64,000 nt of DNA from an uncultured Anaerolineaceae bacterium (GTDB taxonomy: Bacteria; Chloroflexota; Anaerolineae; Anaerolineales; DRMV01): the NCBI GenBank assembly GCA_964435005.1, contig CAYSXA010000001.1, positions 2,237 to 66,236 on the forward strand, written 5' to 3'. The position numbers and the translations under genes were made by a program. Within the stretch, counting starts at the first letter, position 1; each line of letters begins with the position of its first letter. This document shows, piece by piece, positions 19,424 to 58,807 of this stretch. The notes beneath the pieces were generated by a model. The model had not been told where the DNA came from. It made no database searches and saw only the letters and a list, made by a program, of their open reading frames with translations.

Positions 19424-19435
19424 GGGAGGTAAACC

Positions 19436-25357: not shown

Positions 25358-25415
25358 TGAAAAATGTCACTTTGTTGACAAACCGGTAAATCTGTGTATA
25401 CTGAAAATGTCTCAC
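25358..25415 (+). promoter_or_regulatory. Candidate operator repeats bracketing the promoter of the BCR-like operon
   Basis: TGAAAAATGTCAC (25358-25370) and TGAAAATGTCTCAC (25402-25415), plus inverted TGTCA/TGACA (25365-25369 / 25376-25380) overlapping the -35. Confidence 0.35.
25375..25402 (+). promoter_or_regulatory. Sigma-70-type promoter of the BCR-like/aromatic supercluster
   Basis: TTGACA (25375-25380), 16-nt spacer, TATACT (25397-25402). AT-rich divergent intergenic region. Confidence 0.6.
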
Positions 25416-25462
25416 TATTTCATACGGTCGCTGAAAAACCGACGCATAAACAGGAGATGTCT

Positions 25463-26629
25463 ATGACGGTCACCGTATTCGACGCCTGGCAGGGGAAAGA
25501 CCTCGACGAGGTGATCCACCTGTGCCGGGAGTTGTTGGAAGATATGTCCTTCCCCACCGTGCGGCGCTGGCGGGAGGCCGGTGGCAAGGTGCTGGGGCAC
25601 TTCCAGGTGTACTTCCCGGAGGAGGTCGCTCACGCGGCCGGGATGTTGCCGTTCAAGGTGCGCGGCGCGCCGGTCGAACCGATGCAGGCCGATTCGCGTT
25701 TCGGCTCCTACCTGTGTTCTATCCTGAAAACTTCGCTGGAGATCGTGCTGCGCGGCTGGGTGGAACTGGACATATTCGTCACCCACCCGATCTGTGACGC
25801 GGCCCGCAACCTGGCGGCCATCTGGGGACGCAATTTCGACTATCCCTGCGAAATCCTCTACCTGCCCCAGAACGCCAATTCCGCCTACGCGGTGGAGTAT
25901 CTGCGAGGCGAGTACGAGCGGGTGCTGCACGAGTGTGAGCGTATCACTGGCCAGCGAGTGACCGAGGATGACCTGCGGCGCTCGCTGGCGGTGTTTAACC
26001 GCAACCGCGCTTTGATCCGCCGGCTATACGAGATCAAGCGCGAACAGCCCTGGCTGCTGGCGGTGGACGAGGCCTATACCCTGATCTCCGTGGGTGGCAT
26101 GATCCCGCGCGAAGAGCATAACGCCATGCTCGAGGCCGTGATCCCGATGATTGAGGCCCGCCAGGCGCGTCCACAGGACAAAATGCGTGTGGTCTTCGAG
26201 GGTGGTTTCTGCGAGCAGCCCCCGCTGGACTTCCTGACCGTGATCGCCCGCTCCTGCTACGTGGTGGACGACGACCTGATGGTGGGGCTGCGCTGGATCA
26301 CCGAAGATGTGCCGCTGGAGGGCGATCCGCTGCTCAATCTGGCAGAGGCGTACATCGATAAATCGCTCTACAGTCCGGTGCAGCACGACGCGCGCAAGCC
26401 CAAAGAGGCCATGCTGTTGAAAAAGATGCGCGACAGCCGCGCCGGGACGGCCATCGTCGCCGCCGCCAAGATGTGCGAGCCTGGCCTGGAAGATCAGGTG
26501 GCCTATACCCATGCTCTGGACAAGGAGGGGCTGCCCTTCTTTGTCACCGAATTCGAAGAGAACATGACCAGTTTCGACCACCTGGAGATCCAACTGGAGA
26601 CCTTTGTGGAAAACCTGCTGTTTGCGTGA
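25463..26629 (+). CDS. BcrC/BadD/HgdB-family subunit of a benzoyl-CoA-reductase-like / 2-hydroxyacyl-CoA-dehydratase-like enzyme
   Basis: LSFPTVRRWREAGGKVLGHFQVYFPEEVAHAAGMLPF, a family-typical N-terminus. SD AGGAG plus ATG 25463 (ATG 25457 is an alternative). Confidence 0.8.
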   Translation: MTVTVFDAWQGKDLDEVIHLCRELLEDMSFPTVRRWREAGGKVLGHFQVYFPEEVAHAAGMLPFKVRGAPVEPMQADSRFGSYLCSILKTSLEIVLRGWVELDIFVTHPICDAARNLAAIWGRNFDYPCEILYLPQNANSAYAVEYLRGEYERVLHECERITGQRVTEDDLRRSLAVFNRNRALIRRLYEIKREQPWLLAVDEAYTLISVGGMIPREEHNAMLEAVIPMIEARQARPQDKMRVVFEGGFCEQPPLDFLTVIARSCYVVDDDLMVGLRWITEDVPLEGDPLLNLAEAYIDKSLYSPVQHDARKPKEAMLLKKMRDSRAGTAIVAAAKMCEPGLEDQVAYTHALDKEGLPFFVTEFEENMTSFDHLEIQLETFVENLLFA

Positions 26630-26641
26630 AGGAGTAGAGGC

Positions 26642-27928
26642 ATGGCGAAATCAGAAAACGGTCTGGTAGGTCGTGGCAACCGCGAGGGCGCAGCGTTGTT
26701 CCGGCAGTGGTTCGCAGATCTGACCCAACGGGCGGAGCGAAATGAGGGCGCAGCATACGTGTTCGTGATGGGCAGTATGGCCGAGATCCTGCGCGTGTTC
26801 GACCTGCCGACCGTGTTCCCCGAAATCACCTCGCTGCAAACCGCCGTGCGCCATGTGGCGCATGAGTATCTGAGCGCTGCGGAGGACTACGGTTATTCGC
26901 CGGACATCTGCGGCTACGTGAAGGCCGATATTGCATTGCAATTGCGTGGCGGCGAGCACCCCATGGGCAAGGTGCCGCGTCCCATGATTGCTGTGGCGAC
27001 TAACGCTTGCAACACCTACATCAAATGGGGTGAGGCCTGGGAGCGCATGTACAAGGCCCCGCTCTTCGTGCTGGATGTGCCTGCCACGCGGCGCGGCGGC
27101 GCGCAGACCTGGCCAGGCGATCCTGGCTTTGAGCGCGACCGCCGGTACGTGGAAGGTCAACTGCGCGAACTGATTGCCCTCTGTGAAGAAGTCACCGGCA
27201 AGAAGTTCGACATCGACCGCCTGCGCGAGATTCTGGGCTACGCCAATCGCATGAACAAGAACTGGGCACGCGTGCTGGAACTCAACCAGAGCGTGCCCAG
27301 TTTGTTCAACGCCCTGACCGACGGCACCATCTATCTGGGCGTCTCCAACGCCTTTCGCGGCACGCACGAGGGTGCGGAGTTCTTCGAGCGCCTGGTGGAG
27401 GAGATGGAGTACAAGGCCGCCAACGGCATCGGCACCCTGGTGGATGAGAAGTACCGGCTCACGTTCGTGGGTGTGCCATGTTACCCCATCTTCCGTCGCT
27501 TCAATGAACTGTTTACCGAATGGGGCGGCACGTTTGTGGTCTCTACGTATCTGATGTTCGCTTCTGGCGGGGCCAACATGGGCTTTGAATACAACCTGAA
27601 CCGCCCGCTGGAAAGCCTGGCCGAAGGTGTGTTGATCAGCGTGCGCGATGCGATGGATAGCATGTTCCACCAGGATCAGGTGGTGCTGCGCACGCTGGAT
27701 TCTTACAAGATCGACGGTGTGGTGTACCACCCGATCAAGAGTTGCCGTACCGTGTCCACTGGCCTGGCCGACGGGCGGCGCGCGCTGCTGGAATCTCGCG
27801 ACGTGCCCAGCCTGTTCATCGAATCGGACATGATGGATCGGCGGGTGGTCTCCGAAGCGCAGTTGAAGAACCGCATTGACGCCTTCTTCGAGGGGCTGGC
27901 GGCGCGCAGGGCCGCTGCGCTGGCCTGA
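26642..27928 (+). CDS. BcrB/BadE/HgdA-family subunit of the same enzyme
   Basis: 428 aa paralogous fold (..[11 protein letters not shown].., ..[10 protein letters not shown].., ..CNTYIKW.., ..[12 protein letters not shown]..), immediately downstream. Confidence 0.8.
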
Positions 27929-27948
27929 TTTCACCCAAGGAGGATTGT

Positions 27949-28755
27949 ATGGCGTACGCAGCCGGAGTGGATGTTGGTTCCACCCAAACCAAAGCCATTA
28001 TTTTAGACGAGAAACGCAACATCGTGGGGCAGGCGCTGATCGACACTGGCTCCAACGTGATGTTGGCGGCGCAGAAAGCCTTCCGCAATGCGCTGGCCTC
28101 GGCGGATATCCGCGAGGAAGAGGTCGAGTACGTGATTGGCACCGGATATGGTCGCTACCGTGTGACTTTTGGCAACACCCAGGTCACCGAGATCAGTTGC
28201 CATGCACGCGGCGCGGTGCACATGTTCCCTAACACGCGCACGGTGCTCGATATGGGCGGACAGGATACCAAAGCCATTCGGGTGAACGAAAACGGCGAAA
28301 TTCTGGATTTCTGCATGAACGACAAGTGTGCGGCGGGTACCGGGCGCTTCCTGGGCGCGGCGGCAACCGCGCTGGAGATCCCCCTGTCCGAACTTGGCCC
28401 CACTGCGCTGCATTCCGAGAAGCCGGTGCGCATCAGCACCACCTGCACTGTGTTCGCCGAGTCGGAGGTGCTTTCCTGGCTGGGTAAGGGCAAGAAGATT
28501 GAAGACATCCTGTGGGGGGTACACCTCTCCATCGCCTCGCGCTCCATCGGTCTGCTGCGCCGGGTGGGCATCGAGGAGGAGGTCACTTTCACCGGCGGCG
28601 TGGCGAAAAACAAGGGGATGGTCGCGGCGCTGGAACAGGGCCTGGGGGTGAAACTGAACGTCAATCCGCTGTCGCACTTTATGGGTGCGTTGGGCGCGGC
28701 GTTGTTCGCCCTGGATCACATCCTGCTCAGGCGACAGCCTCAGCGCTCGGCCTGA
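27949..28755 (+). CDS. BcrAD/BadFG/HgdC-type ATPase (electron-activating subunit 1)
   Basis: [17 protein letters not shown] (ASKHA N-terminus). Cluster-ligating Cys motifs [12 protein letters not shown] and [11 protein letters not shown]. Confidence 0.88.
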
Positions 28756-28776
28756 CGCCGCATCGGGAGGTTGCAG

Positions 28777-29610
28777 ATGACTTTGACCGCTGGAATAGAT
28801 GTGGGATCCACCTACACCAAAGCCGTGATCCTGGATGACGAATTTCGCATCCTGGGTAAAGCGATGACCAAAACCGGCTTTCAACTGGAAAAGGCCGCCG
28901 AGCGTGCGCTGCTGGGGGCGCTGGACGACGCCGGCGCGCACCGTTCGGATGTGGAATACCTCGTGGCTACCGGCTTTGGCCGCCACCAGGTTTCCTTCCG
29001 CGATGTGAACGTGACGGACATGACTGCCTGCGCCTGGGGCGCCACGCACCTCTTCCCGCGCACGCGCACCATCCTGGATGTGGGCGGGCAGACGATGAAG
29101 GCCATTCGCCTGGGCGACGGTCGGCGGGTGAAATCCTTCCGCCTGAACGACAAGTGCGCCGCTGGCACGGGCGCCTTCCTGGAGAAGACCGCCCGCTACA
29201 TGGGCTACACCACGGAAGAGATCGGTCCGCTGGCCTCCACTTCGAAAGAAGAAGTGCCTATCTCCGGCGTGTGCGCCGTGTTCGCCGAATCCGAGGTGAT
29301 CAATCACCTCTCGCAAGGCGCAGCGCCGGCGGACATCATGCACGGAGCGATCACCGCGCTGGTCAGCCGTTCGGTGCAGTTGATGAAGCGCGTGCGCATG
29401 GAGCCGGAAGTCACGCTGCTGGGCGGCATCCTGCGCTTCGAGACCATGGCTGGCGTGGTGCGGCAGAGCCTGAAGCTGCCGATCAACGTGCCGCCGGGCG
29501 ATATGCCGCAGTTCGTGGCCGCGATGGGCGCGGCTATCCTGGGCCAGCGGCGGCTGCGTAAGCTACGCGCCGGACAGTCGGTGGCGGCCGGAGGCGCTCA
29601 TGCCGTCTGA
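28777..29610 (+). CDS. BcrAD/BadFG/HgdC-type ATPase (electron-activating subunit 2, divergent paralogue)
   Basis: [49 protein letters not shown] plus ATG 28777 (TTG 28771 is an alternative). Confidence 0.88.
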   Translation: MTLTAGIDVGSTYTKAVILDDEFRILGKAMTKTGFQLEKAAERALLGALDDAGAHRSDVEYLVATGFGRHQVSFRDVNVTDMTACAWGATHLFPRTRTILDVGGQTMKAIRLGDGRRVKSFRLNDKCAAGTGAFLEKTARYMGYTTEEIGPLASTSKEEVPISGVCAVFAESEVINHLSQGAAPADIMHGAITALVSRSVQLMKRVRMEPEVTLLGGILRFETMAGVVRQSLKLPINVPPGDMPQFVAAMGAAILGQRRLRKLRAGQSVAAGGAHAV

Positions 29611-31573: not shown

Positions 31574-31601
31574 GGTTCCGTTCAGTTGAGGAGGAATGAT
31601 C

Positions 31602-38839: not shown

Positions 38840-40132
38840 ATGTCCCCCGAACGAGAAGGCCGTGAACTGATTTACGACTGGAACGAGGTGGATGCGCCAC
38901 CGAAGCCAACGCACCGCGTCCTGGTCACCGACGAGACGTTGCGCGACGGACTGCAATCGCCCTCAGTCACGCATCCCGAAATTCAAGACAAGGTGTACCT
39001 GCTCTACCTGATGCGCGACCTGGGCGTGGACGCCGCCGACCTGGGGCTGTGCGGGGCGGGCGAGAAGTTCAAGTACCACGTCACCGTGCTGGCGCGCGAG
39101 ATCGCCAACCAGGGCATGCCCATCCAGCCGCAGAGCGCTGCCCGCACCATGATCGAAGACATCGCGCCCATTGTGGACGCATCCGAGGAGGCGGGTATCC
39201 CCATCGAGGCGGCCATCTTCCTGGGCACCAGCCCCATCCGCCAGTACGCCGAGGGCTGGACGCTGGACTTCCTGCTCCAACGCACGGAGGAGTCGGTGCG
39301 CTTTGCGGTGGATCATGGTCTGCCGGTGATGTTCGTCACCGAGGACACCACCCGCGCCCACCCGGACGTGCTGCGTCAGGTCTATACCGCCGCCATCCGC
39401 GCCGGTGCGCAGCGCATTTGCCTCTCGGACACGGTGGGTCATGCCACACCCGAAGGTACGTATGCGCTGGTGTCGTTCATGCGCCAGGTGGTGGACGAGG
39501 TCAATCCGGAAGTGGGCATTGACTGGCACGGGCACCGCGACCGCGGCATGAGCATCGAGAACACGCTGGCGGCCATCCGCGCTGGCGCCGACCGCGTGCA
39601 CGCCTGCGGTCTGGGCATCGGCGAGCGCAGCGGCAACACGCCGATGGAACTGCTGCTGGTCAACCTGAACCTGCTCGGTTGGGCCGACCGCGACCTCACC
39701 CGTTTGCCGGAGTACTGCCAGGTGATCTCAGAGAAGTGTGGCGTACCCATCCCCTTCAACTACCCTGTGGTCGGCGCGGACTCCTTCCGCACCTCGACTG
39801 GCGTCCACGCGGCAGCCATCATCAAGGCGCTGGACAAGGGCGACACCTGGCTGGCCGACCGCGTGTACTGCGGTGTGCCCGCCAGCATGGTGGGGCGGCA
39901 ACAGGGCATCGAGATCGGCCCGATGTCCGGCGAATCCAACGTGCGCTTCTACCTGCGGCAGCGCGGCATTGAGGAGCATCCCCTTTTCCTGAAGAAGATT
40001 CTTGAGGCCGCCAAGCGGTCCAACCGTCTGCTGGAGGAGGAGGACGTGCTGCGCATGGTGCGCGTGCTGCGTGAGCGTCTTCGCCGCCAGGAAGACGTGG
40101 AGGACATGGACGTGGAGACTCTGTTCCAGTGA
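38840..40132 (+). CDS. 2-isopropylmalate/homocitrate synthase-family (DRE-TIM, LeuA-like) 2-oxoacid:acetyl-CoA condensing enzyme without a LeuA regulatory domain
   Basis: VTDETLRDGLQSP, DTVGHATP, WHGHRDRGM..ENTLAAIRAGADRVHACGLGIGERSGNTPMELL. 430 aa. ATG 38840. Confidence 0.75.
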   Translation: MSPEREGRELIYDWNEVDAPPKPTHRVLVTDETLRDGLQSPSVTHPEIQDKVYLLYLMRDLGVDAADLGLCGAGEKFKYHVTVLAREIANQGMPIQPQSAARTMIEDIAPIVDASEEAGIPIEAAIFLGTSPIRQYAEGWTLDFLLQRTEESVRFAVDHGLPVMFVTEDTTRAHPDVLRQVYTAAIRAGAQRICLSDTVGHATPEGTYALVSFMRQVVDEVNPEVGIDWHGHRDRGMSIENTLAAIRAGADRVHACGLGIGERSGNTPMELLLVNLNLLGWADRDLTRLPEYCQVISEKCGVPIPFNYPVVGADSFRTSTGVHAAAIIKALDKGDTWLADRVYCGVPASMVGRQQGIEIGPMSGESNVRFYLRQRGIEEHPLFLKKILEAAKRSNRLLEEEDVLRMVRVLRERLRRQEDVEDMDVETLFQ

Positions 40133-41531: not shown

Positions 41532-41588
41532 CCTGAATCGGTAAGGGAGGAGGGGAGCGCCTCTCTCCCCTCCTCCGGGAAACCCATT

Positions 41589-42482: not shown

Positions 42483-42492
42483 GAGCCTTGTC

Positions 42493-44773: not shown

Positions 44774-44776
44774 AGG

Positions 44777-45625
44777 ATGGATATGTCGGTAGAAGTGTTG
44801 CTTTCCGCAAAGCAGATACGTAAAACCTTCGGCGGCGTGCTGGCCGTTAACCGGGTGGATTTCGAGGTGCGGCGCGGCGAAATTCTGGCGTTGATCGGAC
44901 CCAACGGCGCGGGTAAGACCACCATTTTCAACCTGATCACGGGTTTTCACCGGCTGGACGGTGGAGAGATCACCTTCGAGGGGGAACGTATTGACCATCT
45001 GCTACCGCATCAGATCGCCGCGCGCGGCATTGTGCGCACCTTCCAGAACCTGCAAATCTTCCACAACATGACGGTGCTGGAGAACGTGATGGTGGGTCTG
45101 CATCGCAGCGGACGCAGCGGACTGGTGGAAGCCATGCTGCGCCTGCCGCGCGCGAGTCGGGAGGAGCGTCGCTTTCGTCAGTACGCGCGCGACATCCTGG
45201 CGATGTTCGGCCTGGCCGACCAGGCCGAACTGCCCGCTGGCGCGTTGCCCTTTGGCAAGCAGCGCTTGCTGGAGATCGCCCGCGCGCTGGCCGCCCGCCC
45301 TCGTTTGCTGATGCTCGACGAACCGGCTGCCGGGCTGACCACCACGGAGACGATTGAACTGGACGAGATCATCCAGCGCCTCCGCGAAAACGGCCTGACG
45401 ATTTTCCTGGTGGAGCACGATATGGACCTGGTGATGGGCATTGCCGATCGGGTAGTGGTGCTGCACTACGGAACCAAACTGGCCGATGGCACGCCATCCG
45501 AGGTGCAAAACAACCCGGCAGTCATCCAGGCGTATTTGGGCACCGACTGGCAGGGCGATACCCGTCTGTTCTGGGAGCCCACGCCGCCTTCTCACGCTTC
45601 GGATGTGGAGGTGCCCCATGCTTGA
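44777..45625 (+). CDS. Liv-type ABC transporter ATP-binding protein (LivG-like)
   Basis: Walker [25 protein letters not shown] signature region, LMLDEPAAG. Carries a 27-aa tail after the usual ..AYLG end. Confidence 0.88.
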
Positions 45626-46418
45626 GGTGCGCGGCATTTCCACCTTCTACGGACGCATCCAGGCGCTGAAGGAGGTCTCTCTGGAGGTGCACCAGGGTGA
45701 GATCGTCACCCTGATCGGCGCGAACGGCGCGGGCAAGACCACGCTGCTGAACAGCATTTCGGGGCTTGTCCCGCCGAAGTCCGGCCAGATTTTGCTCGAT
45801 GGCGATGAAATCACCCATCTTTCGCCGGAGGCCATCGTGGCGCACGGCATCAGCCAGGTGCCAGAGCGGCGGCAACTGTTCGGCACGTTGACCGTGCGTG
45901 ATAACCTGCTGCTGGGCGCTTACCTGCGCCTGCGTCGGGGGGATAAAGCCGGCGTGGAGCAGGACATCGAAGCGATGTTCGAACTTTTCCCGGTGCTGCG
46001 CGAGCGACATAAACAACTGGCGGGGACGCTTTCCGGCGGGGAGCAGCAGATGGTTGCCATTGCGCGTGGCCTGATGGCGCGCCCTAAGGTGCTGTTGCTG
46101 GACGAGCCGTCGTTGGGGCTGGCCCCGTTGCTGGTGCAGGAAATCTTTCGTGTGTTGCGCCGCCTGCGTGACCAGGGCACCACCATTCTGCTGGTGGAGC
46201 AGAACGCCCGTGCCGCGCTGTCCATCGCCGACCGCGCCTATGTGCTCGAAACCGGGCGCGTGGTGCTCTCCGGCTCGGCGCAGGAGTTGGTTGCCAATGA
46301 GCAGGTGCAGACAGCGTATCTTGGACGACGGAGAGACCATCCGCGAGTGCCCGAAGGGTATGTTATAACTTCCTCGGTCACTGAACAACCTTCGAGCAAC
46401 GGACAAAGGAGCGAACCC
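45618..46418 (+). CDS. Liv-type ABC transporter ATP-binding protein (LivF-like); no in-frame stop, so the ORF continues into iorA copy 2 (to 48200)
   Basis: Walker A GANGAGKTT, LSGGEQQMVAIARGL, LLLDEPSLGLAP, family C-terminus ..QTAYLG at about 46325. A 31-codon low-complexity linker then leads to the iorA ATG at 46419, in the same frame. Confidence 0.8.
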
Positions 46419-48404: not shown

Positions 48405-49013
48405 ATGACCACGAAGAACGTCAACTTTCTGCTCGCCGGTGTGGGCGGCCAGGGCACGCTGCTGGCTAGCGACATTCTGGCTGAGGTGGGGCTGCATGTC
48501 GGCCTGGACGCGAAGAAATCGGAAGTGCACGGTATGTCCCAGCGCGGCGGCGTGGTGACCAGCCATGTGCGCTGGGGCGAGAAAGTCTACTCCCCCCTGT
48601 GCGAGAAAGGCAAGGTGGACATTCTGATCGCCCAGGAACTGCTGGAGGCGCTGCGATTTGTGGATTACCTGCGCCCTGGCGGGACGGCGATCTTGAGCCA
48701 TCACCGTATTCCGCCCACGTCCACCGTGTTTGGCAGCGTGCCCTATCCCGCTGAGGATCAGGTTATGCAAGCGTTTCAGGAACGGGCGGGCAAAGTGTTG
48801 TTGATTGATGCGGTGGAGATCGCTGAGCAGATGGGCAACCGACGCGCGGCGAACACCGTGCTGCTCGGCGCGCTTGCCAGCCAGTTGGATGTGCCGATGG
48901 AGGCCTGGCTGGAAGTGGTGCTGGCCCGTGTTCCGCAGAAGTATAAGGAGGTGAACCGGAAGGCGTTTATGGCAGGCTACGAAGGTCAATGGGAACTGTC
49001 TCGACAACCGTAA
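48405..49013 (+). CDS. iorB: Indolepyruvate:ferredoxin oxidoreductase beta subunit, copy 2
   Basis: LAGVGGQGTLLASDI...VHGMSQRGGVVTSHVRWG. 202 aa. Confidence 0.9.
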   Translation: MTTKNVNFLLAGVGGQGTLLASDILAEVGLHVGLDAKKSEVHGMSQRGGVVTSHVRWGEKVYSPLCEKGKVDILIAQELLEALRFVDYLRPGGTAILSHHRIPPTSTVFGSVPYPAEDQVMQAFQERAGKVLLIDAVEIAEQMGNRRAANTVLLGALASQLDVPMEAWLEVVLARVPQKYKEVNRKAFMAGYEGQWELSRQP

Positions 49014-49084: not shown

Positions 49085-50404
49085 ATGCCTATCTGGAACC
49101 CTGAGTTCGAAACGATGGATCGTGACCGGTTGGCGAAGTTGCAGGGGGAGCGGTTGCGTCAGGTGGTCGAGTGGGTGTACCAGCGGGTGCCATTCTATCA
49201 GCGCAAGTTCAAGGAGGCCGGCGTCACCCCAGAGGACATCCGCTCGCTGGATGACTTGAAGCGGCTGCCCTTCACCACCAAGCAGGACCTGCGTGACGAG
49301 TACCCCTTTGGCTTCTTCGCCGTGCCGCTGGATGAGGTGGTACGCATCCACTGTTCGAGCGGCACCACCGGCAAACCGACCGTGGGCGGCTACAACGCGC
49401 ATGATATGAAAGTGTGGGCCGAGGTGATGGCGCGCACCGTAACGGCGGCGGGCGTGACGGACAAAGACATCTGCCACAACGCCTACGGATACGGCTTGTT
49501 CACCGGCGGCCTGGGCTTTCACCTGGGCTTTGAAACCGTGGGTGCGACCGTGGTGCCTATCTCTGGTGGCCTGACCAAACGGCAGTTGATGTTGATGGAG
49601 GATTTTGGCGCCACCGTGCTCACCTGCACCCCGTCCTACTCGCTGGTACTGGCCGAAGAAGCAGCAGAGCAGGGCTTCGACTTCAAGAGCCGCATGAAGG
49701 TGCGTGTGGGTATCTTCGGTGCGGAGCCGTGGACGGAGGAAATGCGTTTGCGTGTCCAGGAGAAACTTGGCCTGGAAGCCTACGACATCTATGGCCTGAC
49801 CGAGATCATCGGGCCTGGTGTCTCGGTGGAGTGCGAGCATCACAACGGCCTGCATATCTTTGAAGACCATTTCCTGCCAGAGATCATTGATCCCGAAACC
49901 GGTGAGCAACTGCCCTATGGTGAGGAAGGTGAGCTGGTGATCACCACGCTGACCAAGCAGGCCATGCCGATGATCCGCTATCGCACCCGTGACCGCACGG
50001 TGCTGCACGCCGAGAAGTGCGCCTGCGGGCGGACGATGGTGCGCATGGAGAAGGTGCGCGGTCGCACCGACGACATGCTGATCGTGCGCGGTGTGAACGT
50101 CTTCCCCTCGCTGGTGGAGAAGACGTTGTTAAGCATTGACGGTCTGGAGCCGCATTACCAGATCGTGGTGGATCGCCCCAAAGACCAGTTGGACCACCTG
50201 GAAGTCTGGGTGGAAGCCAGCAAGCGTTACTTCGAGCCGGTGGACATGCAGGCGTTGGATGCACTCAAGCGCCGCACGGAAGCCGAGCTGGCCGAAGCGC
50301 TGGGCATTCATGCCGAGGTCAAGTTGATGGGGCCGCACACTATCGAGCGCTCGCTCGGCAAAGCCAAGCGTGTGCTCGATAAGCGCAAAGTGTACCAGGA
50401 CTGA
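49085..50404 (+). CDS. paaK: Phenylacetate-CoA ligase family (PaaK-like), copy 2
   Basis: [47 protein letters not shown]. 439 aa. Confidence 0.9.
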
Positions 50405-50697
50405 TGCGCGTTCACGTGCGCCTGGGTGAACCGTTCTGGCGGGTGGTGGGCCAGCGTGAAGTCGAGGTCGTGTTGCCGGCGGGTAGCAGCCTGGCCGACC
50501 TGCTGGCCCATCTCCGCCAGATGTACCCTGATCTGGAGACGGAGATGGGCGCTGCGCCGCCGTTGCTCTTCCTGGACGACGACGAAGCCGACCCGGAAAC
50601 CCTGCTTTCCGAGGGCGATCGGGTGCATCTGCTCTGGCCGATCGCAGGCGGAATGGAGAGTACCGCACCTGTTCCCCCATTCCGCATCCCTCATTAA
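50404..50697 (+). CDS. MoaD/ThiS-like ubiquitin-fold protein with a 14-aa extension after the Gly-Gly motif
   Basis: Beta-grasp-like pattern ending ..GDRVHLLWPIAGG, followed by MESTAPVPPFRIPH. 1-nt overlap with the paaK stop. Directly upstream of aor. Confidence 0.6.
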   Translation: MRVHVRLGEPFWRVVGQREVEVVLPAGSSLADLLAHLRQMYPDLETEMGAAPPLLFLDDDEADPETLLSEGDRVHLLWPIAGGMESTAPVPPFRIPH

Positions 50698-52577: not shown

Positions 52578-52602
52578 CCCTTACCCTACCCCCTTCTTTT
52601 CC

Positions 52603-52657
52603 CCCTCACCTCTCCCATTGGGAGAGGGAAGGGGGGCCGGGGGGGGAGAGGTGAGGG
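52603..52657. repeat. GC-rich palindromic intergenic element (core CCTCTCCCA-T-TGGGAGAGG) with two mutually exclusive pairings
   Basis: Left arm 52603-52617 can pair with 52619-52627 (9 bp) or with 52644-52657 (14 bp perfect: CCCTCACCTCTCCC / GGGAGAGGTGAGGG). Confidence 0.8.
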
Positions 52658-52673
52658 CAAACAAGGAGCCATT

Positions 52674-53963
52674 ATGGGAATGACGTTGGCCGAAAAGATC
52701 CTGGCCGCGCACAGCGGCAAAACCGAGGTGCACGCCGGGGAGTTCGTGAACGCCAAAGTGGATCTGGTGCTGGCGTCCGAACTGTCCGGTGTGGTCGCCA
52801 TCGATGCCTTTCGCAAGATCAAAGGCGCGCGGGTGTTCGACCCGCAGAAAGTGGTCTTTGTGATGGATCATTTCACTCCCAACAAAGACATCAAGAGCGC
52901 CGAGATCGTGAAAAAGTGCCGCGAGTTCGCCCAGGAGACCGGTATCCGTCTGTACGATGTGGGACGGGCGGGCATTCAGCACGTGCTGCTGCCGGAGCAA
53001 GGGCTGGTCTCGCCGGGGGACATCATTGCCGGCGCGGACTCGCACACCTGCACTTACGGCGCGCTGGGGGCGCTGGGCACCGGCATCGGGTCCACCGACG
53101 CGGCGGCAGCCATGGCGCTTGGCGAGTTATGGTTCAAAGTACCGGAGACCATCAAAGTCGTCTACCATGGACGCCCGCGCCCTGGCGTGGTGGGCAAGGA
53201 CATCATTCTGCATACCATCAAGGTCGTCGGCGTGGCGGGCGCGCGCTACATGGCGATTGAGTACAGCGGGGAGGCGGTCGGGTATCTGCAAATGAGCGAC
53301 CGTCTGACCATGGCAAACATGGCGATCGAAGCCGGTGCGATGGCCGGGCTGTTTCAGGCCGACGAGGTTACGATGGCGTTCTTGCAGCGCGCGGGTGCGC
53401 GCCCCGGCGTGGCCTATCGGCCCGATCCGGATGCACATTATGCCCGCGTGGTGGACATTGACCTTTCCGACCTGGAGCCGCAGGTGGCCGTGCCCTATCT
53501 GCCAGAGAACAGCGTGCCGGTTTCCGAGGTGGCGGGGCTGGAGATCCATCAGGTGGTGATCGGGATGTGCACCAACGGCACGCTGGACGATCTGCGACAG
53601 GCGGCGGCAGTGCTGCGCGGGCGCAAGATCCATCCGCGCGTGCGAGCCATCATCATCCCCGGAACGCCCCAGGTGTACCGCGACGCATTGAAAGAGGGAC
53701 TGGTGGACATCTTCATGGACGCCGAGTGTGTGGTCAGTATGAGCACTTGTGGGCCGTGCCTGGGCGGGCACATGGGCGTGCTGGCCGCCGGGGAGCGGTG
53801 CGTGTCCACCAGCAACCGCAACTTCCGCGGACGGATGGGGCACATGCAGTCGGAAGTGTACCTCGCCAGTCCCGCGGTGGCGGCAGCTTCCGCCGTGGCA
53901 GGTTGCATTGCCTCGCCGGAGGACATCGGCGTTTCACCGGACGTAGTACGGGTGTATGTGTAG
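52674..53963 (+). CDS. Aconitase-family dehydratase large subunit (LeuC/HacA-type, archaeal-style about 420 aa)
   Basis: MTLAEKILAAHSGK, DHFTPN, GADSHTCTYGALGA, cluster Cys GMCTNG and CGPCLG, STSNRNFRGRMG. Confidence 0.88.
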   Translation: MGMTLAEKILAAHSGKTEVHAGEFVNAKVDLVLASELSGVVAIDAFRKIKGARVFDPQKVVFVMDHFTPNKDIKSAEIVKKCREFAQETGIRLYDVGRAGIQHVLLPEQGLVSPGDIIAGADSHTCTYGALGALGTGIGSTDAAAAMALGELWFKVPETIKVVYHGRPRPGVVGKDIILHTIKVVGVAGARYMAIEYSGEAVGYLQMSDRLTMANMAIEAGAMAGLFQADEVTMAFLQRAGARPGVAYRPDPDAHYARVVDIDLSDLEPQVAVPYLPENSVPVSEVAGLEIHQVVIGMCTNGTLDDLRQAAAVLRGRKIHPRVRAIIIPGTPQVYRDALKEGLVDIFMDAECVVSMSTCGPCLGGHMGVLAAGERCVSTSNRNFRGRMGHMQSEVYLASPAVAAASAVAGCIASPEDIGVSPDVVRVYV

Positions 53964-54022
53964 CGCACCTGTAACTTGCACTCGATTCACCATGAGAAGC
54001 AGAGGTATTTGAGGAATTTGAG

Positions 54023-54418
54023 GTGTCGGAGGAGGAGCGGCTGCGGGCGGATCCCTTCGCCCAATCGCTGGGAGCGGAGTTGCTGAGCGTGCATCCTGGT
54101 GTGGCCAAGGCGGCCATCACGGTGTGCGAGGGACATTGCAACGTGCTCGGCTGGCCGCACGGCGGGATGATCTTTACCCTGGCGGACTACGCCTTCGCGG
54201 CGGCCTGCAACGCCGGAAACCCGCCCACCGTGGCGGTGCACATGGATATGACCTTTCTCACCCCGGCGCGAATCGGCGAGCGGTTGGAGGCCGAGGCCGT
54301 GCGGCGCGGTGGTCAGGGACGCACTCATCTCTATCGCCTGAGCGTGTACGGCGAAGACCGCCGCCTGATCGCCGAAGGGTATGGACTGGCAAGGACGTTG
54401 AAGGAGACGGAGGCATGA
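54023..54418 (+). CDS. paaI: PaaI/PaaD-type hot-dog thioesterase
   Basis: DPFAQSLGAELLSVHPG.A......CNVLGWPHGGMIFTLADYAFAAAC. GTG start. 131 aa. Confidence 0.8.
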   Translation: MSEEERLRADPFAQSLGAELLSVHPGVAKAAITVCEGHCNVLGWPHGGMIFTLADYAFAAACNAGNPPTVAVHMDMTFLTPARIGERLEAEAVRRGGQGRTHLYRLSVYGEDRRLIAEGYGLARTLKETEA

Positions 54419-55965
54419 GTTTCACCCATTTCTATCACACCACCCTGGGCGAGTTGCTGACCACCCAGGCCCGCATCCACGGCAAGCGTCCCTACCTGCG
54501 CCTGGGCGAACGCACCTGGACGTATGCTCAGGCGGAGGAGGCCGCGATCTCCCTGGCCGGGGCGCTGATCGACCTGGGGCTGCGTCCGGGCGACCGGGTG
54601 GCCGTGATGCTGCCCAACCTGCCGGAGTACGTGATCACCCTGTTCGCGGCAGCAAAGGCGGATCTGTTGCTGGTGCCGATCAACTTACGCCGCCATCCAG
54701 GCGAGGTGCGCGCCCGGTTCGAACGCACCCGCCCAAAAGCAGTGGTCACATTTTCTCAACCGGAAGAGTTCTGGGGCGTGGATCACCTGGAGATGGTGCG
54801 CACCATGCAGCCCGATTTGCCCTTCCTGGAGCATATCATTGCGCTGGAGGGCGGCGATGGCGTGCTGGACTGGGCTGCGCTCTGTGAACACGACGGCCCG
54901 CCCCCGCTGGCAGACGTCCGTCCACAGGACGCGGCGGCCATTGTTCACACGCTGGGGAGCGTCGGTACGCCGCGCGGCGCAGTGCTCACCCACGGCGGAT
55001 TGGTGCGCAACGCCGCTGACATCGCCGCCAACCTGGCCTGCACCGAGGCGGATGTCTTCCTGGGGGCGGTGCCGTTCTCCAACACTTTTGGTCTCACTCC
55101 TACCATCCTGTCCTGCACCGTGGCCGGCGCGCAACTGGTCTGCCTTCCGCGCTACCGGGCGGGGGAGGCGCTGCGGCTGATCCGTGAGGTGGGCGTCACC
55201 GTACATCACGGCGTGCCCACCATGTTTGCGATGGAACTGAACCACCCCGATTTCCGCCCGCAAGACTACGCCACGCTGCGAACCGGCATCATGTCTGGCG
55301 CGCCCTGTCCGCCAGAACTGGTGCGCCGCGTGCGCGAGCAGATGGATATCGCGCTGGTGCTGGCCTATGGCCTGACGGAAGCCTCGCCGTCGGTTGCCAT
55401 GACGCGCCTGGACGATGGCCCAATCACCGCCACCGAGACCGTGGGGCGCCCGATGCCGGACGTGGAGGTCAGGGTGGTGGACGAGCGCGGGCAGCCCCTG
55501 CCGCCCGGTCAGGAAGGCGAACTGTGCGTGCGCGGTTACAACGTGATGCGCGGCTACTGGCAGGACGACCGCGCGACCGCCGAGGTGTTGGACGCGGACG
55601 GCTGGCTGCACACCGGCGATCTGGCAGTGATCGACCCCGATGGCCCTATTCGCATTCTGGGGCGCAAGGACGAGGTGATCAACCGGGGCGGCTTCAAAGT
55701 CCATCCTGCGCCAGTGGAGATGGTCTTGCGGTCTCACCCTGGCGTGAAGGAGGCTGCCGTGGTTGGTGTGCCGGATGCCATCTACGGCCAACTCCCGGTG
55801 GCCTGCGTGGTACCTGGCCCGGGAGCCGATCTGGACGCAGACATGCTTCTGGCCTACGCTGCCGAACACCTGAGCGAAGATGCGTTGCCCTCGCGGGTGG
55901 TCTTCTTCGATGTGCTGCCGCGCCGTCCCAGCGGGGCGGTAGACAAGGCCTATCTGAGCGAGCGC
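54415..55965 (+). CDS. AMP-dependent acyl-CoA synthetase/ligase (ANL) domain; no in-frame stop, so the ORF continues into the LeuD-like domain (to 56466)
   Basis: ATGA overlap with paaI. ANL motifs AYGLTEASP, WLHTGDLAV, ILGRKDEVINRGGFKV. Atypical A3 (HTLGSVGTPRGA) and A10 (PRRPSGAVDK) motifs. Confidence 0.8.
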
Positions 55966-56466
55966 GTGCGCCTGCGCGGGCGGGCCTGGAAGTTCGGCGC
56001 CAACGTGGATACCGATGCCATCATCCCCGCCCGGCATTGCAACACCGCCGATCCGCGCGAACTGGCGCAGCACTGCATGGAAGATGCCGACCCCGAATTC
56101 GTGCACAAGATGCGGCGCGGCGACCTGATCGTGGCTGATGAGAACTTCGGTTGCGGTAGTTCTCGCGAGGTGGCTCCCATCACCATCAAGGCTGCCGGCG
56201 TGAGCGCGGTGATCGCCAAATCCTTCGCCCGCATCTTCTTCCGCAATGCGATCAACATCGGCTTGCCTATCCTGGAATGTCCTGAAGCGGTGGACGGCAT
56301 CCAGGAGGGCGACGAGATCGAGGTAGAACCCGCTACCGGCATCATCCGCAACCTGACGCGGGGTGAGACCTATCAGGCCGCCCCCTTCCCGGACTTCTTG
56401 CGGCAAATCATCGACCGGGGCGGTTTGCTGGCCTACGTTCAAGACCGTCTGGCAGGAAAGGTGTAA
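55966..56466 (+). CDS. Aconitase-family dehydratase small subunit (LeuD/HacB-type), encoded in frame with the preceding ligase
   Basis: (V)RLRGRAWKFGANVDTDAIIPAR..., ENFGCGSSREVAPITIKAAGVSAVIAKSFARIFFRNAINIGLP. A possible internal GTG at 55966, but there is no stop upstream. Confidence 0.8.
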   Translation: MRLRGRAWKFGANVDTDAIIPARHCNTADPRELAQHCMEDADPEFVHKMRRGDLIVADENFGCGSSREVAPITIKAAGVSAVIAKSFARIFFRNAINIGLPILECPEAVDGIQEGDEIEVEPATGIIRNLTRGETYQAAPFPDFLRQIIDRGGLLAYVQDRLAGKV

Positions 56467-56467
56467 C

Positions 56468-57616
56468 ATGGTTGATTTTTCACTCTCCGATGAACAAAAG
56501 TTCATGCGCGAACTGGCGCACAAGTTCGCCGAGAAGGAGATCCGTCCCATCGCGGCGGAATATGACGAACGGGAAGAAGTGCCCTGGGAGGTGATCAAGA
56601 AAGCTGCACAGGCCGGCTTCCTCTCCTACTACATCCCGGAGGAGTACGGCGGGGGTGGCGTGACCGACCTGCTGACCCACGTGCTAGTGGATGAGGAACT
56701 CTTCTGGGGCTGTGCTGGGGTGGGAACCATCCTGGGCGGCACCAGCCTGTGCGTCACACCGATTCTGATCGCCGGCACGGAGGAGCAGAAGCAAAAGTAC
56801 CTGTCCCTGTTCTGCGACCCGGAGCATCCGCGCCTGGGTGCGTTCGCGCTCACCGAGCCGTCCGCCGGCTCCGATCCGGCTAGCATGTCTACCCACGCGG
56901 TGCGCGAGGGCGATTACTACATCATCAACGGCTACAAGACATTTATCACCAATGGCGGCATTGCCGACCTGTATGTGGTGTTCGCCACCGTAGACCCCAG
57001 TTTAGGGCATCGCGGCATCACCGCGTTCATCGTGGAGAAGGACACGCCGGGCCTGGTGCCGGGGAAGAAAGAGAAGAAGATGGGCATCCGCGCCTCGCAC
57101 ACTGCCCAGCTGGCCTTCGAGAACATGCGTGTGCCGGTCTCCAACCGGTTGGGTGCGGAGGGCGATGGCTTCACGATTGCCATGAAGACGTTTGAGATCA
57201 CGCGCGTCCACGTCGCCATCGGTGCAGTGGGTATCGCGCGCGCGGCCTTCGAGTATGCCCGCGATTACGCCAACGAACGTGTGCAATTTGGCAAGCCAAT
57301 CATCCAGCACGAGGCGGTTGGTTTCATGCTGGCGGATATGGCAATGCAGATCGAGGCCGCGCGATTGCTGTGCTGGCAGGCCGCCTGGCTGCACGACCAG
57401 GGGAAGACGAATACCTACTATGCCAGCATGGCGAAAGCGTTCGCGGCGGACATGGCGATGAAAGTCACCACCGATGCGGTGCAGGTGTTAGGCGGGTACG
57501 GCTATATCCGCGAGTATCCGGTCGAAAAGTGGATGCGCGACGCCAAAATCGTCCAGGTGTACGAAGGGACATCCCAGATTCAGCGGCTGATCATCTCCCG
57601 CCATCTGATGCAGTGA
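56468..57616 (+). CDS. Acyl-CoA dehydrogenase
   Basis: FSLSDEQKFMRELAHKFAEKEIRPIAAEYDE, FALTEPSAGSD, C-terminal QVYEGTSQIQRLIISR. 382 aa. Confidence 0.9.
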   Translation: MVDFSLSDEQKFMRELAHKFAEKEIRPIAAEYDEREEVPWEVIKKAAQAGFLSYYIPEEYGGGGVTDLLTHVLVDEELFWGCAGVGTILGGTSLCVTPILIAGTEEQKQKYLSLFCDPEHPRLGAFALTEPSAGSDPASMSTHAVREGDYYIINGYKTFITNGGIADLYVVFATVDPSLGHRGITAFIVEKDTPGLVPGKKEKKMGIRASHTAQLAFENMRVPVSNRLGAEGDGFTIAMKTFEITRVHVAIGAVGIARAAFEYARDYANERVQFGKPIIQHEAVGFMLADMAMQIEAARLLCWQAAWLHDQGKTNTYYASMAKAFAADMAMKVTTDAVQVLGGYGYIREYPVEKWMRDAKIVQVYEGTSQIQRLIISRHLMQ

Positions 57617-57640
57617 CAGGCCCTCTCCTCTCCCCCCGCT

Positions 57641-57679
57641 TCCCCCCTCCCCTCTCCCAATGGGAGAGGGGAGGGGGGA
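57641..57679. repeat. GC-rich palindromic intergenic element, second copy (19-bp perfect arms)
   Basis: TCCCCCCTCCCCTCTCCCA (57641-57659), A, TGGGAGAGGGGAGGGGGGA (57661-57679). Same CCTCTCCCA/TGGGAGAGG core as 52609-52627, followed by a similar GGGGTGAGGG tail. Confidence 0.85.
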
Positions 57680-57724
57680 AATGAAGGGGGGCGGGGTGAG
57701 GGAGACCACCAGTGAGGAGGAAGC

Positions 57725-58807
57725 ATGAAAACCTATAACATCGGCGTCATCCCCGGCGACGGCATTGGCCCTGAAGTGGCTGCTGAGGGCCTTAAGGTGC
57801 TGCGCACCGTGATGGAAATCGAGGGCTTCGACTGCAACCTGGTCGAGTACCCGTACTCCGGTGAGTATTACCTGAAGACCAAAGAACTGGTTCCTGAGCG
57901 GGTGATCGACGAGTGGCGCACGCTAGACGCGGTTTTCCTGGGCGCCATCGGGCATCCGGATGTGGAGCCGGGGCTGGTGGAGCGGTCGGTCATTCTGGGA
58001 CTGCGCTTCGGGCTGGATCTGTACATCAACCTGCGTCCGGTCAAACTGTATGCCCCGCACCTCACCCCGCTGAAGGACAAGCAGCCGGAGGATATGGACT
58101 TCGTGGTGGTGCGCGAAAACACCGAGGGGTTGTACGCCCAAATTGGCGGTTTCTTAAAAAAGAACACGCCGGACGAAGTGTCCACCGTGATCGGGGTGTA
58201 CACCCGCAAGGGGGTGGAGCGCGCGGTGCGCTATGCATACGACCTAGCTCGCCGCCGCAAGCAGGAACTCGGAAAACCCGGTCGCCTGACGCTGGTGGAC
58301 AAGGCCAACGCGGTGCGCCCACACGACATCTGGACACGCGCCTTCGCCGAGGTTGGCGAGGAGTATCCCGATGTGGAACAGGATCACGCTTATGTGGACG
58401 CCTGCACCATGTGGATGGTGAAGAACCCGGAGTGGTTTGACGTGATCGTGACCACCAACCTGTTCGGTGACATCATCACCGATCTGGGCGCTGCGCTGAC
58501 CGGCGGGATGGGCATCGCAGCGTCAGGCAATCTGCACCCCGGCAAGACCTCGATGTTCGAGCCGATTCACGGCTCTGCGCCCAAGTACGCCGGCAAGAAC
58601 GTGGCCTGTCCGCTGGGGGCGATTCTGGCGGTCAGTATGATGCTGGAATATTTGGGCGAGAAGCGGGCTGCCACGCTGATCGAAAACGCGATCAGTGACC
58701 TGATGGTGAGCGGCGCCATCCCATCCGCAACCACACGCAGCGGCCTGAGCACCACTCAACAGGGAGACATGGTGGTGGAAGCCATTCGCAAGCAGGTGGA
58801 TGGGTAG
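57725..58807 (+). CDS. Isopropylmalate/isocitrate dehydrogenase-family beta-decarboxylating dehydrogenase (closest by eye to tartrate/D-malate dehydrogenase TtuC type)
   Basis: IGVIPGDGIGPEV, VRENTEGLY, NLFGDIITDLGAAL.GG.GIAAS.N, EPIHGSAPKYAGK. 360 aa. Confidence 0.85.
   Translation: MKTYNIGVIPGDGIGPEVAAEGLKVLRTVMEIEGFDCNLVEYPYSGEYYLKTKELVPERVIDEWRTLDAVFLGAIGHPDVEPGLVERSVILGLRFGLDLYINLRPVKLYAPHLTPLKDKQPEDMDFVVVRENTEGLYAQIGGFLKKNTPDEVSTVIGVYTRKGVERAVRYAYDLARRRKQELGKPGRLTLVDKANAVRPHDIWTRAFAEVGEEYPDVEQDHAYVDACTMWMVKNPEWFDVIVTTNLFGDIITDLGAALTGGMGIAASGNLHPGKTSMFEPIHGSAPKYAGKNVACPLGAILAVSMMLEYLGEKRAATLIENAISDLMVSGAIPSATTRSGLSTTQQGDMVVEAIRKQVDG

Follow-up and report, generated by a model that had tools for sequence, protein, structure and literature searches.

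We analysed a 64,000-nucleotide stretch of DNA, here called the window, from an uncultured Anaerolineaceae bacterium (contig CAYSXA010000001.1 of assembly GCA_964435005.1), which carries dispersed genes resembling those of leucine biosynthesis. Within it, a LeuD-like small subunit is not a separate product but forms the C-terminal domain of a protein that resembles ANL acyl-CoA ligases. The firm result of this work is that the ANL~LeuD fusion lies inside a conserved supercluster for aromatic-acid catabolism. Together with a LeuC-type large subunit, a LeuB-type dehydrogenase and a LeuA-like condensing enzyme of divergent sequence, the fusion makes up a conserved module. Judged from the sequences, the system is probably a LeuCD-type 2-oxoacid elongation pathway with a fused ligase and a catabolic role in aromatic metabolism. 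The GC content of the region is about 62%, and every relevant gene is on the + strand. The parts of the module are listed below.

38840..40132, + strand: LeuA/HCS-like condensing enzyme, divergent, 430 aa; Pfam PF00682 (HMGL-like) only
52674..53963, + strand: LeuC-type large subunit (Fe-S dehydratase), 429 aa; TIGR02083 LEU2
54415..56466, + strand: ANL~LeuD fusion, 683 aa; ligase domain about 54415-55965, LeuD (aconitase swivel) domain 55966-56466
56011..56046, + strand: LeuD substrate loop PARHCNTADPRE, with HC in place of the usual YL
57725..58807, + strand: LeuB-type beta-decarboxylating dehydrogenase, 360 aa; M. tuberculosis-LeuB subfamily

An earlier note on this DNA had placed LeuC, the dehydrogenase and the condensing enzyme at these coordinates, and open reading frames (ORFs) were found there. 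It had also described a separate small-subunit gene at 55966-56466, which does not exist as such. No stop codon separates the acyl-CoA ligase from LeuD; a single 683-aa ORF extends from the ATG at 54415 to 56466, and the ligase reading frame passes directly into LeuD via VDKAYLSERVRLRGRAWKFGANVDTD. The GTG at 55966 lies inside this frame and is not preceded by a Shine-Dalgarno sequence; the genes around it do have GGAGG-type sites. The genes said to separate the Leu-like genes (paaI, a ligase and an acyl-CoA dehydrogenase, ACAD) are all present, but the ligase and the small subunit are one ORF. Proteins were matched against NCBIfam with its curated cutoffs, Pfam and solved structures in the Protein Data Bank (PDB), and cutoffs are given per gene. 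On the 683-aa protein, NCBIfam placed ligase families at residues 7-518 and TIGR02084 (leuD) at residues 522-676, so that LeuD is a C-terminal domain and not a free-standing small subunit of about 165 aa. The domain carries the GCGSSRE motif. The ligase part consists of AMP-binding and AMP-binding_C (PF00501, PF13193), with essentially no linker between its C-terminal subdomain and the first LeuD strand.

The fusion is not confined to the window. The 683-aa product was called identically in three independent assemblies (two JGI, one Logan). A search of 5.8 billion proteins gave fused homologues, and the best 120 clusters listed were all full-length, with 670-713 aa, 62-86% identity and the PF00501+PF13193+PF00694 architecture. 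Wherever a source was named, it was an Anaerolineales/Chloroflexi metagenome-assembled genome (MAG). A more distant fused member (P0123) showed 55-59% identity. The junction LRERVRIRGxAWKFG was conserved across the family. Mean top-residue frequency was 0.71 in the N-terminal part of ANL, 0.77 in its C-terminal part and 0.87 in LeuD, and both halves appear to be under purifying selection. An assembly or sequencing artefact, with a lost stop or a frameshift joining two genes, can be put aside as having practically no chance, given the three assemblies, the at least 120 diverged full-length clusters and the conserved junction. An AlphaFold2 model of the fusion, made from a 33-sequence alignment, was set aside; the ANL N-domain was confident and LeuD had pLDDT <50. 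No description of an AMP-binding/LeuD fusion was found in the literature, and the fusion is apparently an undescribed protein family. The family is abundant in metagenomes, where it is currently annotated only as "AMP-binding protein" or "fatty-acyl-CoA synthase".

The second distinctive feature is the substrate loop of LeuD. The string DTDAIIPARHCNTADPREL, quoted in the earlier note, is present in the fused domain as claimed. The alignment that had been called for was run on solved structures, in which the loop reads PARYLVYTKPEEL in MJ1277 (isopropylmalate/citramalate isomerase), PGPYLRTTDPYEL in MJ1271 (homoaconitase), PGRYNLTKDPKEL in PH1724 and PARHCNTADPREL in the window. The window loop ARHCNT replaces YL with HC and departs from the (A/G)(R/P)YL-xx pattern; YL is present in MJ1277, MJ1271 and most stand-alone representatives. 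All of the best 120 fused clusters listed carry [HR]C (HCNT 85, RCNT 32, HCTT 2, RCNS 1). It occurred in only 3 of the 150 nearest representatives, namely a 169-aa stand-alone protein, a fragment and a distant fusion. The HC loop was also found in unfused LeuDs beside the same condensing-enzyme family, as ARHCNT in an Anaerolineales locus (L025) and as ARHCTS in two Gemmatimonadota loci (L041, L054). The loop therefore tracks the pathway and not the fusion. A stand-alone LeuD with the loop ARHCTR was seen in another context, on a 6143-bp JGI contig (sample 3300075153) with P0510, where the gene series is Iso_dh, Aconitase, this LeuD, an FAD-dependent oxidoreductase and a member of the MmgE/PrpD family; locus L095 contains only the LeuD gene. 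This context suggests another use of HC-type LeuCD.

LeuC is the presumed partner of the fused LeuD domain and lies immediately 5' of the fusion in all related loci. Its DSHT, MCTNG, TCGPCLG and SNRNFRGR motifs are readable in the translation, and the three Fe-S cysteines are kept. In the dehydrogenase, alignments to 1W0D and 3U1H show the catalytic R, R, R, Y, K, D, D and D positions to be conserved.

The condensing enzyme is the most divergent member of the set. It fails every model for isopropylmalate synthase (IPMS), homocitrate synthase (HCS), NifV and CimA. Its best NCBIfam score is 213.5 bits against a cutoff of 517, and all 24 matches fall far below their cutoffs. The LeuA_dimer regulatory domain is missing, and the catalytic motifs LRDGxQ, HxH and ED are present. 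Five pocket positions, as tabulated for HphA, HCS and IPMS (PMC12961565), were read from alignments to 6KTQ, 3RMJ and 2ZTJ. The window enzyme has Ala/Met/Val/Cys/His at positions 1-5, compared with Leu/Glu/Ser/Asn/Glu in IPMS, His/Arg/Thr/Ser/His in HCS and Ala/Asp/Ala/Met/Ser in HphA (PMC12961565). The gatekeeper Ala aligns to the HCS His and the IPMS Leu, with conserved R and DI residues of 6KTQ, 3RMJ and the query as anchors, and is shared with HphA. In HphA, the A73L substitution raised activity on 2-oxoisovalerate 17-fold (PMC12961565). As predicted by the alignments, the pocket is hydrophobic with a small gatekeeper. All 21 closest members share it without change, and it is almost constant in the remaining 61 of 82, where a few substitutions occur at one position.

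The module is embedded in an Anaerolineae supercluster for the anaerobic catabolism of aromatic acids, which spans roughly 33 kb. This supercluster comprises a benzoyl-CoA reductase (BCR)-like enzyme, PaaX, enoyl-CoA hydratase (ECH), MaoC, short-chain dehydrogenase (SDR) and thiolase genes, a Had-like alcohol dehydrogenase (ADH), two indolepyruvate:ferredoxin oxidoreductases (IORs), PaaK-type ligases, an aldehyde:ferredoxin oxidoreductase (AOR), PaaI and ACAD. The other genes are listed below.

25394..29610, + strand: BCR-like class-I enzyme, four subunits (2 x HGD-D, 2 x BcrAD ATPase), by Pfam
29855-30784, + strand: PaaX regulator, 244 against a cutoff of 264.55
30797-31573, + strand: Dch-like ECH; best family match Dch, below cutoff
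31596-32090, + strand: MaoC hydratase
32074-32841, + strand: SDR
32854-34062, + strand: thiolase
about 34100-34525, + strand: YbgC-type thioesterase
34549-35571, + strand: Had-like Zn-ADH; best family match Had, below cutoff
about 35600-36446, + strand: Amidohydro_2-like gene, 40-54% identity to the PF04909 genes of L004 and L006
36478..38829, + strand: IorA1/IorB1, indolepyruvate:ferredoxin oxidoreductase; TIGR03336 IOR_alpha 667.6 against 650.9, IorB families 226 against 237
40269-46400, + strand: liv-type ABC transporter genes, by Pfam
43496-44773, + strand: PaaK-type ligase inside the liv-type genes
46419-48200 (IorA2) and 48405-49013 (IorB2), + strand: second IOR; IOR_alpha 718.9 against 650.9
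49085-50404, + strand: PaaK-type ligase after IorB2
50404-50697, + strand: ThiS/MoaD-like small protein, PF02597
50727-52577, + strand: AOR, PF02730 + PF01314; NF007354 182 bits, below cutoff
54023..54418, + strand: PaaI-type hotdog thioesterase; TIGR02286 106 against 118.9, TIGR00369 cutoff passed
56468..57616, + strand: ACAD, butyryl-CoA-dehydrogenase-like; AcrC 419 bits and cyclohexane-1-carbonyl-CoA dehydrogenase 372 bits, both below cutoffs

The condensing enzyme lies directly 3' of IorA1/IorB1, and both IorA proteins exceed the IOR_alpha equivalog cutoff. Between the condensing enzyme and LeuC stand the liv-type transporter, the two PaaK-type ligases, the second IOR, the ThiS-like gene and AOR. 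The PaaI stop overlaps the start codon of the fusion (ATGA), and AccC and BCCP genes follow directly 3' of LeuB in the window. Within 45618-48200, the LivF-type ABC ATPase has no stop before IorA2, and gene callers give an 860-aa ABC~IorA product. IorA2 can start at an ATG of its own (46419) with AAAGGAG before it, and a stop codon lies shortly 5' of IorA2 in five related loci, making the read-through species-specific.

Gene neighbourhoods were compared in 95 loci (L-numbers) from GTDB and metagenomes. Gene order was conserved in at least 15 Anaerolineae loci, and the arrangement was more compact in other Anaerolineae than in the window. Five loci (L004, L006, L015, L016, L023) hold thiolase, thioesterase, ADH, amidohydrolase, IorAB, condensing enzyme, ThiS, AOR, LeuC, fusion and LeuB. 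Loci L008-L019 hold (PaaX), ECH, SDR, thiolase, ADH, amidohydrolase, IorAB and condensing enzyme. In two metagenome relatives (L088, L089), BCR-like genes and PaaX are joined to the same series up to IorA. The condensing enzyme adjoins IorAB in every Anaerolineae locus. The ThiS-like and AOR pair stands directly 5' of LeuC in L004, L006, L012, L015, L016, L020 and L023. An ACAD follows the fusion also in L005, L025 and L094. The last of these carries a distant fusion, with Aldedh replacing AOR (order aldehyde dehydrogenase, LeuC, fusion, ACAD). On the same bacterial metagenome contig, AcnX large and small subunits, UbiD and UbiX adjoin the distant fusion (5615-9094); we take these to be the gene set of the archaeal-type anhydromevalonate-phosphate mevalonate pathway.

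Related genes were found in other phyla. Two Gemmatimonadota loci (L041 2945-11227, L054 893-11233) carry an ADP-forming acyl-CoA synthetase (ACD), a HisC-equivalog aminotransferase, LeuB, LeuC, LeuD(HC), an ECH (crotonase) and the condensing enzyme, and the LeuD relative scores 222 on TIGR02084. This conserved cluster resembles an unfused version of the Anaerolineae module. In Ca. Thermofontivivens, the condensing-enzyme family stands beside PaaK, IorAB, LeuCD, ACAD and ACS. The Acidobacteriota loci are high-GC, and greedy ORF calling gave spurious ORFs there; neighbours were traced in one of them, a Thermoanaerobaculia MAG (L080). It contains a bona fide Thauera-type had-oah-bcrCBAD operon (1754-11221) with nearly all scores above the NCBIfam cutoffs, and the LeuA-like gene lies about 1.4 kb 3' of the operon, after GNAT and TPR genes. 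No neighbours of these kinds surround the majority of the Acidobacteriota copies.

Based on this gene content, phenylpyruvate or another arylpyruvate may be lengthened by one carbon via benzylmalate and then beta-oxidised to benzoyl-CoA. We put this forward tentatively, at somewhat less than an even chance. In the proposed route, AOR would oxidise arylacetaldehyde to arylacetate, a ligase (the fusion or PaaK) would form arylacetyl-CoA, and IOR would convert it to arylpyruvate by reductive carboxylation. Transamination of phenylalanine could alternatively supply phenylpyruvate directly. The LeuA-like enzyme would then condense arylpyruvate with acetyl-CoA to 2-benzylmalate, LeuC and the fused LeuD would isomerise this to 3-benzylmalate, and the LeuB-type enzyme would yield 2-oxo-4-phenylbutyrate by oxidative decarboxylation. 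The adjacent IOR would give 3-phenylpropionyl-CoA, which might also arise by a side route that uses the aldehyde, AOR and the fused ligase domain. Benzoyl-CoA and acetyl-CoA would then be formed from it by ACAD, hydratase, SDR and thiolase. The BCR-like enzyme would dearomatise benzoyl-CoA, and the Dch-like ECH and Had-like ADH would carry on the ring pathway. The ligase domain itself may activate aryl-alkanoic acids (phenylacetate, 3-phenylpropionate, cinnamate) coming from AOR or uptake, and the fusion would couple the ligase to the elongation module at fixed stoichiometry. By calculation, the route has the same redox and carbon balance as the known alpha-oxidation (6 [H], 1 CO2). The benzylmalate reading is the most economical one and assigns every conserved gene a role. 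No literature was found linking benzylmalate or 2-oxo-4-phenylbutyrate to benzoyl-CoA or anaerobic degradation, or Leu-like genes to IOR/AOR in Anaerolineae.

The individual steps have parallels in known systems. HphA/HphCD/HphB of Nostoc punctiforme share the predicted chemistry, from phenylpyruvate through benzylmalates to 2-oxo-4-phenylbutyrate, and the gatekeeper Ala (HphA-A73). The likeness concerns tabulated pocket residues, of which the other four differ (M/V/C/H here, D/A/M/S in HphA). In contrast to Hph, the window genes have no nonribosomal peptide synthetase or cyanopeptide context, and their proposed role is catabolic, feeding beta-oxidation. HphB lacks the 14-aa lid of isopropylmalate dehydrogenase (IPMDH), for which the source gives no coordinates. 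In the GAVGGP...LR loop, the window dehydrogenase shows gaps of only 2 and 1 residues relative to Bacillus IPMDH 3U1H, and a large deletion of the HphB kind was not seen against that enzyme. HacA/HacB (MJ1003/MJ1271, PDB 2PKP) of coenzyme B/lysine elongation have the same fold and the same iterative LeuA/LeuCD/LeuB logic, and LeuD aligns to MJ1271 with 147 bits. Unlike HacB/LysU, the window loop has Asn and not the Arg of YLRT, and NF040625 and NF040604 were not among the matches listed for the fusion. Unlike HCS, the condensing enzyme has no distal-carboxylate-binding His and Arg. With the type-II (archaeal) LeuC/LeuD pair of M. jannaschii (MJ0499/MJ1277, PDB 3VBA), the LeuD domain aligns over the full length of MJ1277 at 196 bits; GCGSSRE, the LEU2 equivalog and the Fe-S cysteines are shared. 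Here the small subunit is instead fused to a roughly 520-aa ANL part, has [HR]C and not YL, and stands in a catabolic rather than an ilv/leu context. On the catabolic side, the Thauera/Aromatoleum phenylalanine/phenylacetate pathway (Pat, Pdc, AOR/Pdh, PadJ, PadBCD, PadEFGHI) and the 3-phenylpropanoate clusters of A. aromaticum and D. multivorans share AOR, aryl-acid CoA ligases, IOR, the ACAD-hydratase-dehydrogenase-thiolase set and a class-I BCR-like enzyme. The PadBCD/PadEFGHI alpha-oxidation genes are absent from the window cluster, which has the Leu-like C1-elongation module instead. This module would connect C6-C2 substrates to the C6-C3 beta-oxidation route.

Several observations weigh against the benzylmalate route, and many of them fit a housekeeping branched-chain pathway. 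According to this alternative, the isomerase and dehydrogenase are the ordinary isopropylmalate/citramalate enzymes of the lineage and work with a short LeuA/CimA that lacks regulation. Isobutyrate, propionate and similar short branched-chain or other fatty acids would be assimilated reductively into valine, leucine and isoleucine by the fused ligase and IOR, and the chemistry that IORs and ligases have in common would account for the position among aromatic genes. LeuC passes the isopropylmalate equivalog (TIGR02083 LEU2, 621.5 against 610.65), and the LeuD domain misses TIGR02084 by 2 bits (243.8 against 245.85). The dehydrogenase passes NF002898, the actinobacterial-type IPMDH model (429.5 against 393), and fails TIGR00169 leuB (255 against 353). 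The suggestion that it resembles TtuC/D-malate dehydrogenase was not borne out; it scored 329.1 against 470.4 on TIGR02089 (tartrate dehydrogenase, TDH) and 304.7 against 501 on NF006048. Among solved structures it matches M. tuberculosis LeuB best (1W0D, 278 bits), followed by P. putida TDH (3FLK, 233) and Bacillus IPMDH (231). The enzyme is nearer to TDH than to E. coli/Thermus-type LeuB, but nearest to a LeuB, and the impression of a TtuC comes from where the subfamily stands and not from its best match. Its pocket residues are hydrophobic (I/L), which is compatible with any hydrophobic substituent, alkyl or aryl.

The loop is likewise less decisive than had been claimed. Jeyakanthan et al. 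reportedly found in 2010 that loop positions RT versus VY set homoaconitase (HACN) versus isopropylmalate isomerase (IPMI) specificity, positions that we take to be Arg26/Thr27 of MJ1271. The window has N-T at these positions, as does ARYLNT, the commonest bacterial type among 50%-identity representatives. The deviation from YL to HC thus stands as an atypical feature, while the positions implicated in HACN/IPMI specificity are those of a canonical LeuD, leaving the loop-specificity argument imprecise. H alone (ARHLNT) or C alone (RYC..) was seen in other LeuD clusters. The [HR]C loop is thus unusual, yet each residue has precedent. As for a second canonical LeuD, a search with P0126, the nearest YL-type protein, named Desulfobacterota, Thermodesulfobacteriota and Firmicutes and no Chloroflexi, a result that is uninformative on the fusion genomes.

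The surroundings add further points of this kind. The liv-type transporter and the downstream AccC/BCCP genes would fit branched-chain metabolism as well, and the related Gemmatimonadota genes adjoin a hisC-equivalog aminotransferase. Among the aromatic genes of the window, the following fall under their curated cutoffs. The BCR-like genes have the four-subunit class I architecture by Pfam, yet all four scores are below the Bcr/Bzd cutoffs (BcrC 250 against 421, BcrB 206 against 487, BcrA/BzdQ 226/202, with 226 against 578, and BcrD 134 against 313). The two PaaK-type ligases score 559.5 and 403.7 on PaaK with a cutoff of 646, and the Dch-like and Had-like proteins are also below theirs. The condensing-enzyme family extends well beyond Anaerolineae. 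Its members have about 400-440 aa, an N-terminal IYDWN motif, the A/M/V/C/H pocket and 55-62% identity outside the class. They occur in Acidobacteriota, Gemmatimonadota, Planctomycetota, Dormibacterota and others (L026-L087), with >596 GTDB matches, and in those phyla they are mostly without Leu-like or IOR neighbours. That a family with an almost unchanged pocket is so widespread, mostly among other neighbours, points to a function of a more general kind; this LeuA-like family appears to be functionally uncharacterised.

The housekeeping pathway is nevertheless an unlikely explanation, although the most serious contender. The condensing enzyme is far from every IPMS/CimA model, lacks the leucine-feedback domain and has Ala in place of Leu as gatekeeper. 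[HR]C is fixed in the family, though canonical YLNT LeuDs already take isopropylmalate and citramalate. There are zero ilv genes in the 95 loci and the window, and it is catabolic genes (ACAD, ECH, thiolase, AOR, PaaX, BCR-like) that are tightly conserved around the module. The earlier proposal of a non-leucine substrate accordingly survives in part. The family-wide [HR]C, the odd condensing enzyme and the aromatic supercluster speak for it, and the isopropylmalate thresholds passed by LeuC and LeuB speak against it.

Catalysis by the ligase domain of the fusion is uncertain. Among solved structures, the domain comes closest to feruloyl-CoA synthetase (251 bits) and 4-coumarate-CoA ligase (236 bits). 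These hydroxycinnamate:CoA ligases (8WEU/8WEV, 4CL 3A9U) are the best structure matches to the N-terminal 520 aa, and motifs A5 (YGLTE), A7 (TGD) and A8 (GRxxDxIxxGG; GRKDEVINRGG here) are shared, intact and conserved. Unlike them, the fusion has no A10 lysine and an altered A3, and its C-terminus runs straight into LeuD. The A3 P-loop has the family motif [HY]TLG[SN]SG[EQ]PRGA (TLGSVGTPRG here) instead of TSGTTGxPKG and departs from the canonical T[SG]G[ST][TS]GxPKG. At the position of the catalytic A10 lysine, 121 sequences show Pro in 81, Ala in 14, Leu in 11 and Val in 5; at least 111 of 121 are thus P/A/L/V, Lys is outside the top four residues, and the window protein has Ala. A Lys or Arg is conserved three residues after this position. 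Because the A10 lysine is absent and the A3 motif non-canonical, ligase activity is uncertain, a further point against the proposed route. The domain may be an enzyme with altered adenylation chemistry or a pseudoenzyme. In the latter case, it would be a non-working ligase that binds a ligand or serves as a scaffold, regulating or anchoring LeuCD, an arrangement compatible with any substrate reading. The near-zero linker to LeuD, which could hinder domain alternation, would agree with this as well. We consider a non-working ligase rather improbable, with A5, A7 and A8 intact and purifying selection strong. In other lineages, ordinary ligases take the corresponding place in the cluster (L041 and L054 have ACD, L082 has a separate ACS), which argues that ligase activity belongs to the pathway.

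A role in acetyl-CoA assimilation during growth on aromatics has a poor chance of being correct. In this scheme the LeuA-like enzyme would serve as citramalate synthase and combine acetyl-CoA with pyruvate from a 2-oxoacid:ferredoxin oxidoreductase (OFOR). LeuCD and LeuB would turn the citramalate into 2-oxobutyrate, and IOR would form propionyl-CoA, which the AccC/BCCP carboxylase would lead through methylmalonyl-CoA to succinyl-CoA. An OFOR adjoins the condensing enzyme in all Anaerolineae loci, AccC and BCCP directly follow LeuB in the window, and the presence of the condensing-enzyme family in several phyla would be expected for a central-metabolic role. The AccC/BCCP linkage, however, was seen in the window species only, both OFORs are IOR equivalogs and not POR or VOR, and a carboxyltransferase or mutase is absent from the cluster. 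The small Ala gatekeeper would widen the pocket, the opposite of what a pyruvate-specific enzyme is expected to show. A reverse-leucine scheme, with an alkylmalyl-CoA synthetase and lyase acting like ATP-citrate lyase, was dropped: the condensing enzyme scored 30 bits on HMG-CoA lyase against 213 on LeuA models, making it IPMS/HCS-like and not a CoA-ester lyase, and the scheme had no energetic rationale.

Regulatory signals were also looked for. No PaaX operator half-sites (TGATTC/GAATCA) were found in the intergenic regions of the cluster, and Rfam at gathering threshold gave zero matches in the whole window. Two C-rich/G-rich hairpins at 52578-52660 and 57621-57700 (-61.7 and -79.3 kcal/mol; z -4.4 and -5.1) adjoin the leuC-like and leuB-like starts on their upstream side and share the core CTCTCCCAWTGGGAGAG, which has two copies only in the window. 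The same sites in related species have other palindromes (L004) or none (L006). A conserved leader upstream of leuC/leuB was rejected, as the hairpins are species-specific palindromes and Rfam was blank; they look like species-specific REP-like elements. Elsewhere, the window holds an alternative-complex-III-like set at 662-7085 (multihaem cytochrome c, Mo-pterin-like subunit, FeS, NrfD, ActD, cytochrome c) and a mevalonate-pathway trio at 17046-20602 (HMG-CoA reductase, HMG-CoA synthase-like, thiolase). On account of these two sets, the organism looks like a respiring, possibly facultative, member of the Chloroflexi. This lifestyle fits an ATP-dependent class-I BCR.

We know of 2-oxoacid chain elongation only in biosynthesis (leucine, lysine, coenzyme B, glucosinolates, homophenylalanine). 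If the benzylmalate reading is true, elongation would serve as a catabolic adaptor that turns C6-C2 aromatic acids into beta-oxidisable C6-C3 compounds, a new pathway logic. The fusion offers annotators a marker, the [HR]C loop together with the A/M/V/C/H condensing enzyme, that separates the module from true leucine genes. It is conceivable, with roughly the confidence due to a minority view, that Anaerolineae and possibly some Gemmatimonadota/Acidobacteriota use an undescribed catabolic benzylmalate route that replaces PadBCD/PadEFGHI and is marked by the [HR]C ANL~LeuD fusion. Obligate anaerobes such as D. multivorans are without PadB and PadEFGHI, and how they convert phenylacetate to benzoyl-CoA has been described as unclear (PMC5109826). 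For anaerobes of this kind, the benzylmalate route, if true, would be a concrete answer to the acknowledged gap between phenylacetate/phenylalanine and benzoyl-CoA (PMC5109826).

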